A DNA stretch of 64,000 bases, taken from an uncultured Gammaproteobacteria bacterium. Its GTDB lineage: Bacteria; Patescibacteriota; Microgenomatia; UBA12405; JAHJSD01. The translations under genes were made by a program, and so were the position numbers. Shown here one piece after another: positions 13,087-39,910 of this stretch (position 1 is the first letter of the stretch; the number at the start of each line of letters is the position of its first letter). The notes under the pieces are model-generated. The model saw nothing but the letters and a program-made list of their open reading frames with translations, was not told the DNA's origin and ran no database searches. The stretch covers positions 137,328 through 201,327 of the forward strand of contig CAYRYE010000001.1 of assembly GCA_964428655.1 (NCBI GenBank), given 5' to 3'.

Positions 13087-13812
13087 TTGAGGTTTGCTCT
13101 AAATTTGTATTCTGATAAAATCTGCTATTGGATGTATAATGTTGTTTTTTTTGTTTTATTACTAATAACACCTTGGTTTTGGCGTATAGTAAAAATTAAT
13201 GTTTGGATCGCCCTTTTTGTTTTACTTGCTTTTTTAGCTGTGCTTTATTCAAGAAAATTTAGCAAGCTAGGATTCTTCTCAGTGTTTTTTATGATTATTC
13301 TTCTCGTTTTTCAACTGAAAACGACAAGGAAAACTGACTTTTTTTATCTGGATAATGATCAACAAAGAGTCCAACAAGTGAGATTGAGCGAATATCCTCC
13401 GATAAAGATAGATCTGGGGGGAAAGACAATTTGGTTGCCGGTGGGCTATTGGCTTGAAGGACGCCCAGAATCGATTGCCTTTTATCGAGCGAAACAGAAC
13501 TTTTTTGAGCTTGTTGATTCTAATTTGTATTTCTTTGCTAACCATCCCCGGGAAAGAGTAGGAGTTGAGGAATTTGAGAAGCTTCCTTATATTTTCCTAC
13601 CTTTCTTTATCGCCGGTTTACTTGTTCAGGCCAATAAAAAAAACTGGTGGCACTACTTATGTTTTCTAATCTTGCCGGTACTTATTTTGACCTTCTGGGG
13701 TAATGTCAGCGCGTTGGGACCTTTTTTACTGTTCCCATTTCTTATAATCTCTGTTTTTGACGGTTTTTGTTTTTTAATTTTGAAAAGAAGAGATGGAAGT
13801 AGAAAAAAATAA
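13087..13812 (+). CDS. Hypothetical membrane protein (the likely true start is an internal Met near 13133).
   Basis: Several TM segments and a coding-like frame that abuts the downstream GT-C gene. Confidence 0.45.
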   Translation: MRFALNLYSDKICYWMYNVVFFVLLLITPWFWRIVKINVWIALFVLLAFLAVLYSRKFSKLGFFSVFFMIILLVFQLKTTRKTDFFYLDNDQQRVQQVRLSEYPPIKIDLGGKTIWLPVGYWLEGRPESIAFYRAKQNFFELVDSNLYFFANHPRERVGVEEFEKLPYIFLPFFIAGLLVQANKKNWWHYLCFLILPVLILTFWGNVSALGPFLLFPFLIISVFDGFCFLILKRRDGSRKK

Positions 13813-37772: not shown

Positions 37773-39910
37773 TGTTAAAAATTATACACGAAGATAAAAT
37801 AAAACTTATGTTTAGTGATTTTTTTATTATTTTTTACTGGTGGCTGATTCTTTTGTTTTTTGGTTTTCTATTTTTGCCCTTGGTTTTTGGGTTATTTAAA
37901 AAGTTTTGGGATAAGGGTTGGATTTTTAGCAAGACTTTAGGGATTATTATTGTTTCTTATTTAATTTTTATTTTTGGTCGACTTCATCTTTTTCCGTTCT
38001 TTAAAGAAACAATATTGTTGGTTATTTTTCTAATTTTATTGGGAAATATTTGGTGGTTAAATCAAAAAAAACACAAGAAAGAATTCTGGCAAATTTTCAA
38101 AGATAATTGGCAGAAATTTTTACTTGAGGAAATCATTTTCTTTTTATGTTTGACCTTTTGGGCTTTTATTCGTGGTTTTCAGCCCGACATAGAAGGTTTG
38201 GAAAAATTTATGGATTTTGGCTTTGTTAATTCTATTCTTCGTTCTACTTGGTTTCCGCCGGCCGATATGTGGTTTGCCAATCAATCGATTAATTATTACT
38301 ACTTTGGCCATCTTCAGGCAGCAGTTTTGACTAAAATTTCTGGATTGGATTCAGCCATTACTTATAACCTAATGATGGCAACGGTTTTCGCCTTAACTTT
38401 TGCTAGCGCTTTTTCCTTGGCTTCTAATCTAGCTTATATTTGGCCGGGCAAAAAGTTAAAAATCAAGAATTTAGTTTTAGTTGGTTTAATCTCGGCTTTG
38501 CTTTTAACTCTTGGCGGTAATCTTCACAGCGCCGTGTATGTTTTGAAAAGTGGCAAAGATAAATATTGGTATCCAGATTCAACTCGGTTTATCGGCCATC
38601 AACCTAATAACCCAAACGATAAGACAATTCATGAATTTCCTCTTTATTCCTTTGTTGTTGCCGATCTTCACGGACACATGAATGATATTCCAACAGTTTT
38701 GCTTTTTTTAGCCGTCCTTTTGGTAATTGGATTGGATTTAGTTAAAAAAAGCAAAAAAATTCAAAATTCAAAATTCAAAATTCAAAATTCACTGCCAGCA
38801 TTTTTATTAGCAGTGATGTATATGACTAATTCGTGGGATTTTCCCATTTACGGGGTTCTTTTGGCAATTTTTCTCTTTTTTGTATTTTACTTCAAACATC
38901 CTACGGCGGGCATCAAGTATATTTTTAATTCTCTTCGCAAAACTTTTCTCTATGGTGTTATTATTCTAGTCTTGTCTATTTTATTTGCTCTTCCATTTGC
39001 CCTTTCTTTTAAACCCATGGCTAATGGAATTACTTTTGTCAATGCCCGTTCTCTTTGGTGGCAACTGTTGGTTTTATGGGGATTTTTTTGGTTTGTCTCT
39101 CTTGGCTTTTGGGCTTTTGTTATTAAAAAATTAACCATTCAGCCATTTAACCATTTAACCATTCCTGACATTCTTGTTCTCTCGGCTACTGTTTGGGCAA
39201 CGATTTTGATCATTATCCCAGAAATTATCTATGTCAAAGATATTTATATTCCCGAATACCATCGGGCCAATACCATGTTTAAACTGGTTTACCAGTCTTT
39301 TGTGATCTATGCTTTGTCAAGCGGCTACATTTTCTGGAGAATCAAGAATTTTTTATTAAAAAAGAACTTTATACTTTATACTTTGTACTTTATACTTTTT
39401 CTGGCAGGCTTTTCTGCCCACATGATTTATCCCTATTTTGCCATTAAAGGTTATTATGGCAGTTTAGAAAATTATCGTGGTCTTTATGGGATGAAGTTTT
39501 TGGACAATTTGCACCCGGATAATTATCAGGCTGTTTTATGGTTGAAAGAGAATGTTAAAGGCCAGCCAGTAATTTTAGAAGCAGTAGGTGATAGTTACAC
39601 TCTCTATAACCATGTCTCTAGTATGACCGGATTACCTACAGTTGAAGGGTGGTTGGTTCATGAATGGCTTTGGCGGGGGGGTTATGATCAGCCCGGGGCT
39701 CGGTCTACTGAGGTCGAAGCAATTTATCAAGGAGAAGATGAACAGTATGCGAGAAACTTACTGAGCAAGTATAAAGTTCAATATGTTTTTCTTGGTGATT
39801 TGGAAAGAGAGAAGTATCCCGAGCTTGGGGAAGAAAGATTTGCTCAGTGGGGGAAAGTCATTTTTTCTTCTGGAGAGGTAAAAATTTATTATCTTGATCG
39901 TTTAAATTAG
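37772..39910 (+). CDS. Large polytopic membrane protein of the DUF2298 / Chlor_Arch_YYY family (GT-C-like putative glycosyltransferase).
   Basis: SINYYYFGHLQ (YYY motif), about 20 TM segments, and a C-terminal soluble domain (EAVGDSYTLYNHVSSMTGLPTVEGWLVHEWLWRG). Confidence 0.55.
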   Translation: MLKIIHEDKIKLMFSDFFIIFYWWLILLFFGFLFLPLVFGLFKKFWDKGWIFSKTLGIIIVSYLIFIFGRLHLFPFFKETILLVIFLILLGNIWWLNQKKHKKEFWQIFKDNWQKFLLEEIIFFLCLTFWAFIRGFQPDIEGLEKFMDFGFVNSILRSTWFPPADMWFANQSINYYYFGHLQAAVLTKISGLDSAITYNLMMATVFALTFASAFSLASNLAYIWPGKKLKIKNLVLVGLISALLLTLGGNLHSAVYVLKSGKDKYWYPDSTRFIGHQPNNPNDKTIHEFPLYSFVVADLHGHMNDIPTVLLFLAVLLVIGLDLVKKSKKIQNSKFKIQNSLPAFLLAVMYMTNSWDFPIYGVLLAIFLFFVFYFKHPTAGIKYIFNSLRKTFLYGVIILVLSILFALPFALSFKPMANGITFVNARSLWWQLLVLWGFFWFVSLGFWAFVIKKLTIQPFNHLTIPDILVLSATVWATILIIIPEIIYVKDIYIPEYHRANTMFKLVYQSFVIYALSSGYIFWRIKNFLLKKNFILYTLYFILFLAGFSAHMIYPYFAIKGYYGSLENYRGLYGMKFLDNLHPDNYQAVLWLKENVKGQPVILEAVGDSYTLYNHVSSMTGLPTVEGWLVHEWLWRGGYDQPGARSTEVEAIYQGEDEQYARNLLSKYKVQYVFLGDLEREKYPELGEERFAQWGKVIFSSGEVKIYYLDRLN
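38757..38791. repeat. Heptanucleotide tandem repeat (aaattca, 5 copies) inside the DUF2298 gene.
   Basis: Read directly; encodes KIQNSKFKIQNS. Confidence 0.85.
39135..39166. repeat. Octanucleotide repeat array (ccattyar, 4 copies).
   Basis: ccattcag ccatttaa ccatttaa ccattcct. Confidence 0.8.
39365..39399. repeat. Heptanucleotide tandem repeat (actttat, about 5 copies, two imperfect).
   Basis: Read directly; encodes FILYTLYFILF. Confidence 0.8.

Follow-up and report, generated by a model that had tools for sequence, protein, structure and literature searches.

Which envelope product would call for six membrane glycosyltransferases of fold class C (GT-C) to be encoded within one span of a bacterial genome? 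The question is raised by a 64,000-nt stretch of a metagenome contig from the Microgenomates, within the Candidate Phyla Radiation (CPR), which we analysed as a whole and call the window; the GT-C span lies in it at 13-40 kb. CPR bacteria (Patescibacteria) make up a large, mostly uncultured share of bacterial diversity and live attached to host cells, and to our knowledge next to nothing has been established about the chemistry of their envelopes; a literature search on DUF2298, on GT-C enzymes in CPR and on envelope glycosylation in Microgenomates returned nothing relevant. An earlier annotation of the span (the original prediction) had taken its density of such genes to point to extracytoplasmic, polyprenyl-phosphate-dependent envelope glycosylation, and our results bear this out, as the GT-Cs lie amid enzymes acting on lipid carriers. 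We argue that the products of the span may elaborate a wall glycopolymer outside the cytoplasm, using one pentofuranose donor or more, a reading whose chances we put at about even.

Assignment of six membrane proteins to the GT-C class

All six open reading frames (ORFs) were found at the coordinates of Table 1, by the first of which we name genes and products throughout, and hydropathy gave multiple transmembrane (TM) segments in each. Three of the products (20276, 21724 and 32004) matched the Pfam family PMT_2 with 36.8, 47.5 and 37.2 bits, above its gathering score of 26.1, and 37772 belongs to the DUF2298/chlor_Arch_YYY family, scoring 349.8 bits with PF10060 (cut-off 27.8) and 528.3 bits with TIGR03662 (cut-off 300.25). 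The remaining two, 13793 and 34462, gave no direct Pfam or NCBIfam match and were assigned through their homologues. Among the 727 scored homologues of 13793 several are named 'glycosyltransferase family 39' (GT39) or ArnT-like, PF13231 was found in about one-third of the 120 that were listed, and the family profile aligned with that of the 34462 family in hhalign at 95% (E 3.7e-8); homologues of 34462 at 45-51% identity carry PF02366 and PF13231. The GT39 names in both sets of homologues are automatic annotations. A search with 32004 returned 3239 cluster representatives at E<=1e-3.

Searches of the PDB with the single sequences of 13793, 32004, the family 2 glycosyltransferase (GT2) 18731 and the DUF2298 protein gave no match, and the best that our profile A3 reached there was ArnT at E 0.11; since these sequence searches came up empty, we compared folds instead. 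AlphaFold (AF2) models of 34462 (pLDDT 92, pTM 0.92) and of the DUF2298 protein (pLDDT 88, pTM 0.93), built on alignments of 55-56 sequences, retrieved GT-C enzymes only when searched with Foldseek against the PDB at E<=1e-3: ALG12, ALG9, STT3/AglB, Pmt4 and ArnT in the first case, AglB, STT3, DPY19 and AftA in the second. For the other four proteins the assignment comes from PMT_2 or profile matches. The prediction of six GT-C membrane proteins was thus upheld, three through PMT_2, one through DUF2298 and two through homologue families, and as judged from these matches and the two models all six are GT-C-type enzymes. From the WecA-like, phosphoribosyltransferase-like (31082) and GT2 genes that share their operons, they are predicted to use polyprenyl-phosphate-linked donors on the outer face of the membrane. 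Measured against the full-length PMT proteins of CAZy family GT39, the PMT_2 matches are partial and a MIR domain was not detected, and 32004 scored 20.0 with PF02366 (PMT), below the gathering score of 22.7.

The DUF2298 protein and the HPDE family, to which 32004 and 34462 belong, are homologous in their final TM helices and in the extracytoplasmic domain at the C-terminus (hhalign 91%, E 1e-6; alignments A1 and A2). Some DUF2298 proteins of ~900 aa (P0292 and P0296) also contain, as a fusion, PAP2 domains of lipid-phosphate phosphatases (PF01569, PF14378), which fits a polyprenyl-phosphate-linked substrate.

Acidic first-loop motifs and a GT-C without its first helix

It had also been claimed that 32004 and 34462 are paralogues sharing HPDE after the first TM helix (TM1) and a C-terminal TV(F/Y)DHP motif. 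This proved correct: blastp aligned the two at 28% identity over 562 columns (E 1.5e-40), and HPDE as well as the C-terminal V-x-DHP/TV(F/Y)DHP is invariant in the 56-sequence family alignment. A D-E pair stands right after the TM1 position in all five GT39-like proteins, as YVDE in 13793 (D39 and E40 invariant), YGDE in 20276, WGDE in 21724 (kept in ~30 relatives) and HPDE in 32004 and 34462, and the DUF2298 protein has the invariant acidic residues E108, E132, D136 and D153. Acidic loop motifs, the lack of which had been named as grounds for giving up the GT-C assignment, are present and conserved. To judge from the basic N-termini and the models, the first-loop motifs are probably extracytoplasmic.

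The product of 21724 starts a few residues ahead of the invariant SLWGDE, and rpsT ends 20 nt upstream of its gene. In ~30 relatives (L011-L082) the start lies 5-10 residues before the invariant SLWGDEA(F/W), and with an N-terminus conserved to this degree in the sequence comparison the absence of TM1 is natural. Without TM1 the catalytic loop would have to cross the membrane as an N-terminal tail, or a partner would have to supply the helix.

Lipid-carrier enzymes and the predicted pentose donor

The gene 31082 had been read as a UbiA prenyltransferase accompanied by an FAD oxidoreductase. Both families stood, and the generic prenyltransferase did not, since the protein is DPPRS-like: the top three of its four NCBIfam matches are DPPRS models, with NF008978 at 204.9 bits against an equivalog cut-off of 207, its best PDB match is Rv3806c of Mycobacterium tuberculosis (Mtb; 8j8j, E 2.1e-34), and its 'NDVVDIPYD', 'HPQKRNRPIAKG' and 'GKR' align with NDxxDxxxD, HPxKRxRPIAxG and GKR of the Mtb enzyme, in agreement with the fold and motifs of DPPRS. 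We predict that 31082 makes polyprenyl-phosphate-ribose-5-phosphate from phosphoribosyl pyrophosphate (PRPP), as a polyprenyl-phosphate 5-phosphoribosyltransferase (PPPRS), and by this likeness the chemistry of the donor becomes partly predictable. The flavoenzyme gene 29788 sits just ahead of the 32004 orthologue (with overlapping frames in L009 and L094) or else upstream of the UbiA gene (L003, L008), and its product may modify either the lipid-linked pentose or the polyprenyl carrier. We rejected it as a DprE1 homologue, as it belongs to another family (PF01593/NF005560) and its PDB matches cover only the FAD-binding N-terminus.

A cytosolic family 4 glycosyltransferase (GT4) had been predicted at 36122, and both PF00534 and PF13439 agree with this. 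The GT4 gene is always paired with the HAD-like gene 37230, in a position kept in L008, L009, L010, L093 and L094. The HAD-like protein and a CapA-like one had been reported as lying nearby; the former is supported by its motifs DLDGVI, SGRYSFL and DDD (motifs I, II and IV), invariant in six orthologues, in spite of weak hidden Markov model (HMM) matches, whereas the latter exists but lies ~9 kb outside the span. The HAD-like protein is a candidate 5-phosphoribose phosphatase.

The MraY/WecA-like transferase 17279 also held up, its match to the WecA model TIGR02380 (E 1.7e-27) beating the MraY models, yet staying below the cut-off. From this similarity the enzyme would prime a glycan linked to a lipid pyrophosphate. 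Where a processive GT2 with Q-x-x-R-W had been claimed, we found a GT2 with synthase-type motifs, but not that exact motif: in 66 homologues the DxD (211-213), IIPEDWH and Q348-x-x-R-H-A-W-G motifs of 18731 are invariant, the last (QxxRHAWG) carrying a two-residue insertion relative to QxxRW. The match of 18731 to PF13632 (Glyco_trans_2_3; E 1.3e-5, 25.6 bits) falls under the gathering score of 27. The 130-aa product of 18335 is a candidate flippase or GT2 partner, with a role like that of GtrA, GacJ or PgaD. MurJ (23343) was confirmed at equivalog level, and its role is probably related to peptidoglycan and not particular to this glycan. We considered it as the donor flippase by analogy with the MATE flippase of a related pathway (PMC11127046) and did not adopt this as the default, given that it passes the MurJ cut-off.

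Conservation in three modules across Microgenomates

The product of 32004-33599 is encoded identically on the 428-kb JGI metagenome contig Ga0309839_1000004 (3300028837), and homologues of 13793, 34462 and 37772 come overwhelmingly from Patescibacteria, the named ones from Microgenomates (Shapirobacteria, Woesebacteria, Daviesbacteria). The original prediction had spoken of one supercluster, 'probably organism-specific'. A dense and conserved set does exist; its unity does not, for the span consists of three separately conserved modules (A, B and C) split by rpsT, the uracil-DNA glycosylase (UDG) gene, the PilN/PilO-like genes and MurJ. Module A is a conserved gene pair (13087 and 13793) located elsewhere in relatives; in L091 and L092 an unannotated gene of 225-235 aa overlaps the upstream end of the 13793 homologue.

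A metagenome scan with the GT2 gave 446 related stretches, and in 80 fetched loci we read the synteny of module B. The GT2 is kept with two GT-Cs, the small TM protein and the WecA-like gene, and the gene for a PEGA and SH3 protein (16407) is convergent with them. In most of the longer loci the 20276-type gene adjoins the 21724-like and GT2 genes and the WecA-like gene is co-operonic with the GT2; the 130-aa gene holds its position in most loci spanning the operon, and in most GT2 loci the neighbour of the PEGA/SH3 gene is a UbiA or WecA-like gene. Two contigs of metagenome-assembled genomes (MAGs; L003 and L004, 41-69% protein identity) share the order PEGA/SH3, WecA, small TM, GT2, GT-C, MurJ, PilN, PilO and surface proteins. 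In L003 it runs on through the flavoenzyme, UbiA and a GT-C; L004 ends inside the surface-protein genes, and a 20276-type GT-C was not detected in it.

Module C is kept in five distant loci (L008, L009, L010, L093 and L094; 44-61% identity to 34462), in the order MurJ, (rpsT), PilN, PilO, a small ORF, an fn3/Big_13 protein, the flavoenzyme, GT-C, GT-C, GT4 and HAD-like genes on the minus strand, DUF2298, UvrD and FemAB. MurJ, its left border, has kept its place in L003, L004, L009, L010, L093 and L094. In four of the five loci a LytR-CpsA-Psr (LCP) gene is convergent with the DUF2298 gene and overlaps its end; the window and L008 have no such gene there, and UvrD begins one base behind the DUF2298 stop codon. 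The UbiA gene stands between the genes for the flavoenzyme and GT-C 32004 in L003, L008 and the window; in ~30 more distant loci it directly follows the WecA-like gene of module B, the module in which most relatives have it. Our strongest indication that modules B and C share a function is this alternation of the PPPRS gene between them. Module B stands beside module C only in the closest relatives, and in L009 and L094 MurJ is bordered by hrcA-grpE-dnaK.

The genes are thus not scattered in relatives, as modules B and C are syntenic, and they are not peculiar to one organism: the modules are conserved across Microgenomates, in dozens of loci from metagenomes and MAGs whose proteins are as little as about 45-60% identical. 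Around its 13793 homologue the L091 locus packs eight certain GT-C genes and a probable ninth into 21.6 kb, as dense as the span or denser, in a wholly different context, and another 13793 homologue sits among unrelated genes. Such GT-C density is typical of the lineage.

Accessory genes vary within module C. An extra PMT_2 GT-C is inserted in L008 and L094, a 251-aa GT2 in L008 as well, and L009 and L093 have a methyltransferase beside the GT4. Module C is a conserved scaffold with variable accessory enzymes.

Proposed pathway and competing explanations

From these families, folds, motifs and gene orders we infer donors, acceptor, sequence of steps and final product, together with roles for the flavoenzyme, the HAD-like and the 130-aa protein, as follows. 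The WecA-like enzyme would prime a polyprenyl-pyrophosphate-linked N-acetylhexosamine (HexNAc) acceptor on the cytoplasmic face, which the membrane GT2 and/or the GT4 would extend before export. The DPPRS-like UbiA protein would convert PRPP to polyprenyl-phosphate-ribose-5-phosphate, the HAD phosphatase would strip the 5-phosphate, and the flavoenzyme would possibly convert the lipid-linked pentose or its carrier further. After flipping, the GT-Cs, five GT39/PMT_2-like and one DUF2298, would move polyprenyl-phosphate-linked sugars onto the exported glycan at the outer face, and the product would probably be a secondary polymer attached to the wall. The setting is a neighbourhood of peptidoglycan biogenesis, with MurJ and FemAB in the window and the LCP gene in relatives, which suggests a wall-attached product.

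Several observations weigh against this wall-polymer pathway. The six GT-Cs and their partners, close homologues included, are known from genes and predicted folds alone. The five GT39-like enzymes match PMT/PMT_2 models, and the best-known bacterial enzymes of the PMT family act on proteins, by O-mannosylation, or on lipid A, and not on wall polymers; arabinosyltransferase models matched none of the six GT-Cs. The NF008978 score of the UbiA protein stays just below the equivalog level. An epimerisation step is speculative, since DprE1 and the flavoenzyme are unrelated and the scanned ORFs of the window yielded no reductase of the DprE2/SDR type. L093 has no flavoenzyme gene, and L009, L010, L093 and L094 have no UbiA gene within the fetched 21 kb. 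We identified no dedicated donor flippase, MurJ scoring as a true lipid II flippase, and the window has no LCP gene. Moreover, the modules are broken up by rpsT, UDG and UvrD genes, and with GT-C genes as abundant as they are in the lineage, part of the adjacency could be incidental.

The most serious competitor, in our view possible yet on balance improbable, is protein O-glycosylation, in which the GT39/PMT-like GT-Cs would modify the Thr/Pro-rich stalks of 26554, 28008 and 29110, S-layer-like proteins and/or components of type IV pili, with polyprenyl-phosphate sugars, possibly including a PRPP-derived pentofuranose, as donors; the arabinosylation of pilin by TfpW in Pseudomonas aeruginosa and O-mannosylation by actinobacterial Pmt may be compared. 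The PMT/PMT_2 matches and the GT39-named homologues agree with it, and so does the location of the three proteins with long Thr/Pro-rich segments, candidate acceptors, immediately upstream of the flavoenzyme, PPPRS and GT-C genes. In 26554 and 29110 the C-terminus consists of a Thr/Pro stalk, a (V/L)PE(S/V)G motif (VPESG, LLEVG; LPEVG in L003) and a terminal hydrophobic helix; it resembles what we take to be a sorting signal of the VPDSG- or PGF-CTERM kind, and no HMM matched this signal. The orthologue of 26554 (fn3/Big_13/Pur_ac_phosph_N) lies directly ahead of the flavoenzyme and GT-C genes, downstream of PilN/PilO, in L009, L010 and L094, and the positional orthologues of PilN and PilO in L009, L010, L093 and L094 match PF05137 and PF04350. 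A precedent for PPPRS-dependent pilin glycosylation is cited in PMC11127046. However, protein O-glycosylation leaves the WecA-like enzyme, the synthase-like GT2, the GT4 and the LCP gene of relatives unexplained, and these point to a polymer linked to a lipid pyrophosphate. Six distinct GT-Cs exceed the needs of known protein O-glycosylation systems, the adjacency of Thr/Pro-rich proteins may merely reflect a common envelope neighbourhood, and the span revealed no gene for a pilin.

A more specific scheme would have Microgenomates build a peptidoglycan-linked arabinogalactan-like polymer, or pentofuranosylated surface proteins or pili, through a PRPP-derived polyprenyl-phospho-pentofuranose, with an amine-oxidase-fold flavoenzyme replacing DprE1/E2 and with hitherto uncharacterised GT-C families (HPDE, TM1-less PMT_2 and DUF2298, the last of which would gain its first functional assignment). 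We offer it tentatively and consider it doubtful in this full form.

It could also be argued that there is no single pathway, and that independent GT39-like GT-Cs, with acceptors differing by module (for example lipoteichoic-acid-like polymers, peptidoglycan, lipids or proteins), were juxtaposed by the density of a small genome and by core gene order. The L091 array in its different context, the 13793 homologue among unrelated genes, the contact of module B with MurJ and module C in close relatives only, the hrcA-grpE-dnaK neighbourhood of MurJ and the interspersed rpsT, UDG and UvrD genes would all agree with this. We nevertheless think it unlikely, as the alternation of the PPPRS gene between modules B and C argues for a functional link and as the order inside both modules, with overlapping frames, is strongly conserved down to 45% identity. 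A mobile or horizontally acquired island was rejected, since in the AT-rich window (33-45% GC) composition is unbroken at the GT-C region beyond the AT-richness of membrane genes and the locus is syntenic with the core genome of relatives.

Comparison with known glycosylation systems

The wall-polymer pathway that we favour has its nearest parallel in the three-component pathway of Kelly et al. 2024 (PMC11127046), which couples a DPPRS-like PPPRS and a phosphoribose phosphatase to a flippase and a GT-C so that glycans receive pentofuranoses outside the membrane. That pathway parallels mycobacterial arabinan synthesis and is widespread; auxiliary redox enzymes turn its ribose into other pentoses, and elaborate versions with several GT-Cs were noted (PMC11127046). 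Like ORF12/14/15 of Citrobacter youngae O1/O2, the span has a PPPRS of UbiA fold that is a homologue of Mtb DPPRS, together with a candidate HAD-type phosphatase and GT-Cs predicted to be extracytoplasmic, and in both an optional redox enzyme could diversify the pentose; in the span the PPPRS gene overlaps that of a GT-C. The differences lie in the phosphatase candidate, here a separate 180-aa protein encoded 5 kb away with its motifs intact and there an N-terminal PRP domain; in the flippase, as no dedicated MATE or SMR flippase was found here and the adjacent MOP-family protein scores as a true MurJ; in the GT-Cs, here six that by their matches are GT39/PMT_2-like or DUF2298 proteins, against one of GT136; and in the redox enzyme, whose amine-oxidase fold sets it apart from the short-chain dehydrogenase/reductase (SDR; ORF13) and from DprE1/E2.

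Mycobacterial synthesis of arabinogalactan and lipoarabinomannan (LAM) employs WecA, GlfT1/2, the UbiA protein Rv3806c, Rv3807c, DprE1/E2, AftA-D, EmbA-C and Lcp1. The span resembles it in WecA-type priming, a GT2, a DPPRS-type enzyme beside a GT-C gene, a flavin oxidoreductase, multiple GT-Cs, an LCP ligase gene (in relatives) and the association with peptidoglycan genes. It differs in phylum; in its GT-Cs, which are PMT_2 and DUF2298 proteins and not of GT53/85/87/89; in its flavoenzyme, which is of PF01593 and not like DprE1, whose families we take to be PF01565/PF04030, and no DprE2 was seen in the scanned ORFs; in its phosphatase candidate, which is HAD and not PAP2, though some DUF2298 homologues carry PAP2; and in its GT2, which unlike GlfT2 is membrane-embedded and synthase-like.

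Module B also recalls the multi-component transmembrane glycosylation systems of wall polymers, GtrABC, CsbB-YfhO and GacIJKL (reviewed in PMC8035078), as it groups a GT-C with a GT2 and a small multi-TM protein, and as in the GtrABC mechanism a polyprenyl-phosphate sugar would be synthesised in the cytoplasm and, once flipped, handed on by a GT-C at the outer side. Unlike GtrB, the GT2 (503 aa) has TM helices at both termini and synthase-type ED/QxxR..W motifs; the 130-aa protein did not match GtrA, and the operon holds two GT-Cs (one TM1-less) and a WecA-like gene. With the PMTs of GT39 (eukaryotic enzymes and actinobacterial Pmt) and ArnT of GT83 the GT39-like proteins share PF13231/PF02366, the first-loop DE motif and a predicted fold matching Pmt4 and ArnT; their HMM scores, in contrast, are low and confined to the N-terminal half, they have no MIR domains, and they share their C-terminal domain with DUF2298.

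The enzyme superfamilies and the kind of pathway are therefore known. Without characterised counterpart are the combination of a WecA-like enzyme, a synthase-like GT2, two GT-Cs and a PPPRS in one module, that of a flavoenzyme, three further GT-Cs and a GT4/HAD pair in another, and the TM1-less GT-C, the DUF2298 member and the CPR host. The locus predicts, in testable form, a PRPP-derived lipid-linked pentofuranose donor and a defined Microgenomates-wide set of GT-Cs, and it offers a functional context for DUF2298/YYY and for the abundant, generically annotated 'GT39-like' expansion. Should a DPPRS-dependent wall glycan occur outside Actinobacteria, our evolutionary view of arabinan-type wall synthesis would broaden. 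As an argument from comparative genomics this would not surprise specialists in GT-C enzymes.

Features of the span and neighbouring genes

Table 1. Genes of the GT-C span, of its neighbourhood and of selected related loci (coordinates refer to the window unless a locus is named).
Feature	Coordinates	Strand	Remarks
Polytopic membrane protein, 449 aa	2544-3893	-	'PPIDTDLGW' after TM1; no Pfam or NCBIfam match
CapA/PGA_cap-like protein	3890-4909	-	~9 kb outside the GT-C span
Small polytopic membrane protein, 241 aa, module A	13087-13812	+	overlaps start of 13793; no Pfam or NCBIfam match
GT-C, GT39/ArnT-like Patescibacteria family, module A	13793-15469	+	homologues and hhalign
Membrane-anchored PEGA + SH3_3 protein	16407-17300	+	PEGA 1.2e-14, SH3_3 6.9e-10; convergent with module B
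WecA/TagO-like polyprenyl-phosphate HexNAc-1-phosphate transferase	17279-18328	-	PF00953 2e-21
Multi-TM protein, 130 aa, between WecA and GT2	18335-18727	-	no HMM match
Membrane-embedded GT2, 503 aa, synthase-type motifs	18731-20242	-	most conserved module B gene
GT-C (PMT_2), module B	20276-21742	-	PF13231 5.9e-9; YGDE after TM1
GT-C (PMT_2) without TM1, module B	21724-23022	-	PF13231 2.9e-12; A2 profile E 2e-7
rpsT	23043-23282	-	unrelated gene inside the span
MurJ lipid II flippase	23343-25031	+	PF03023 4.9e-76; TIGR01695 279.6 bits, cut-off 235.55
PilN-like and PilO-like bitopic proteins	25075-25650, 25622-26290	+	overlapping genes; no Pfam match in the window
Three surface proteins with Thr/Pro-rich stalks	26554-27957, 28008-29096, 29110-29778	+	
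Amine-oxidase/phytoene-desaturase-fold FAD oxidoreductase	29788-31056	+	PF01593 6.5e-22; NF005560 357 bits, cut-off 252
DPPRS-like PPPRS (UbiA superfamily), predicted	31082-32014	+	NF008978
GT-C (PMT_2/PMT, HPDE family), module C	32004-33599	+	PF13231 4.3e-9; start overlaps end of UbiA gene
Uracil-DNA glycosylase	33838-34473		unrelated gene inside the span
GT-C (HPDE family), paralogue of 32004	34462-36165	+	public gene call starts at 34486
Cytoplasmic GT4 (GT-B)	36122-37267	-	PF00534 1.6e-29, PF13439; divergent from DUF2298
HAD-superfamily phosphatase-like protein, 180 aa	37230-37772	-	weak class-B acid phosphatase and e(P4) 5'-nucleotidase matches
DUF2298/chlor_Arch_YYY, GT-C fold (predicted), 712 aa	37772-39910	+	PF10060 3.7e-104; public gene call starts at 37808, 12 codons later
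UvrD	39911-41776	+	unrelated gene at span border; starts one base after DUF2298 stop codon
UvrD-family helicase, AddA-like, PD-(D/E)XK nuclease domain	44057-46963	-	
LCP genes of relatives	L009 16463-17347; L010 15584-16657; L093 16117-17214; L094 17231-18169		
Genes inserted in module C of relatives	L008 8317-9999, 13349-14104; L094 11765-13300		

The PEGA and SH3_3 protein at the edge of module B is probably wall-associated. Over 29110-29778 the public gene call (L001) places a 139-aa Gly/Val-rich ORF at 29328-29747 on the minus strand; the 222-aa plus-strand ORF is more likely to be real, because its non-repetitive N- and C-termini are conserved in the counterparts of L003 (13288-13833) and L008 (3153-3776). 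In a scan with NCBIfam models 13087, 15562, 18335, 25075, 26554, 28008 and 2544-3893 received no assignment.

The remaining ~38 kb of the window gave no GT-C matches, and Rfam models matched four tRNAs in the window and nothing else. The gene at 2544-3893 is translationally coupled to the CapA-like gene. Considered as a seventh GT-C, its product was unrelated to profiles A1-A3 and, by phmmer, to every other ORF of the window; it could be another enzyme of envelope polymers. The two UvrD-family genes to the right of the span flank FemAB and two tRNAs; UvrD and FemAB, in this order, form a conserved border to the right of module C, and many relatives have them next to module B on its left. To the left of the span, at 8267-12063 on the plus strand, lie four Fe-S-related genes, encoding a DUF134 protein, a dinitrogenase FeMo-cofactor-binding-like protein and two MinD/ParA-type ATPases with 4Fe-4S ferredoxin inserts, followed by one 383-aa ORF with a weak Redoxin match.

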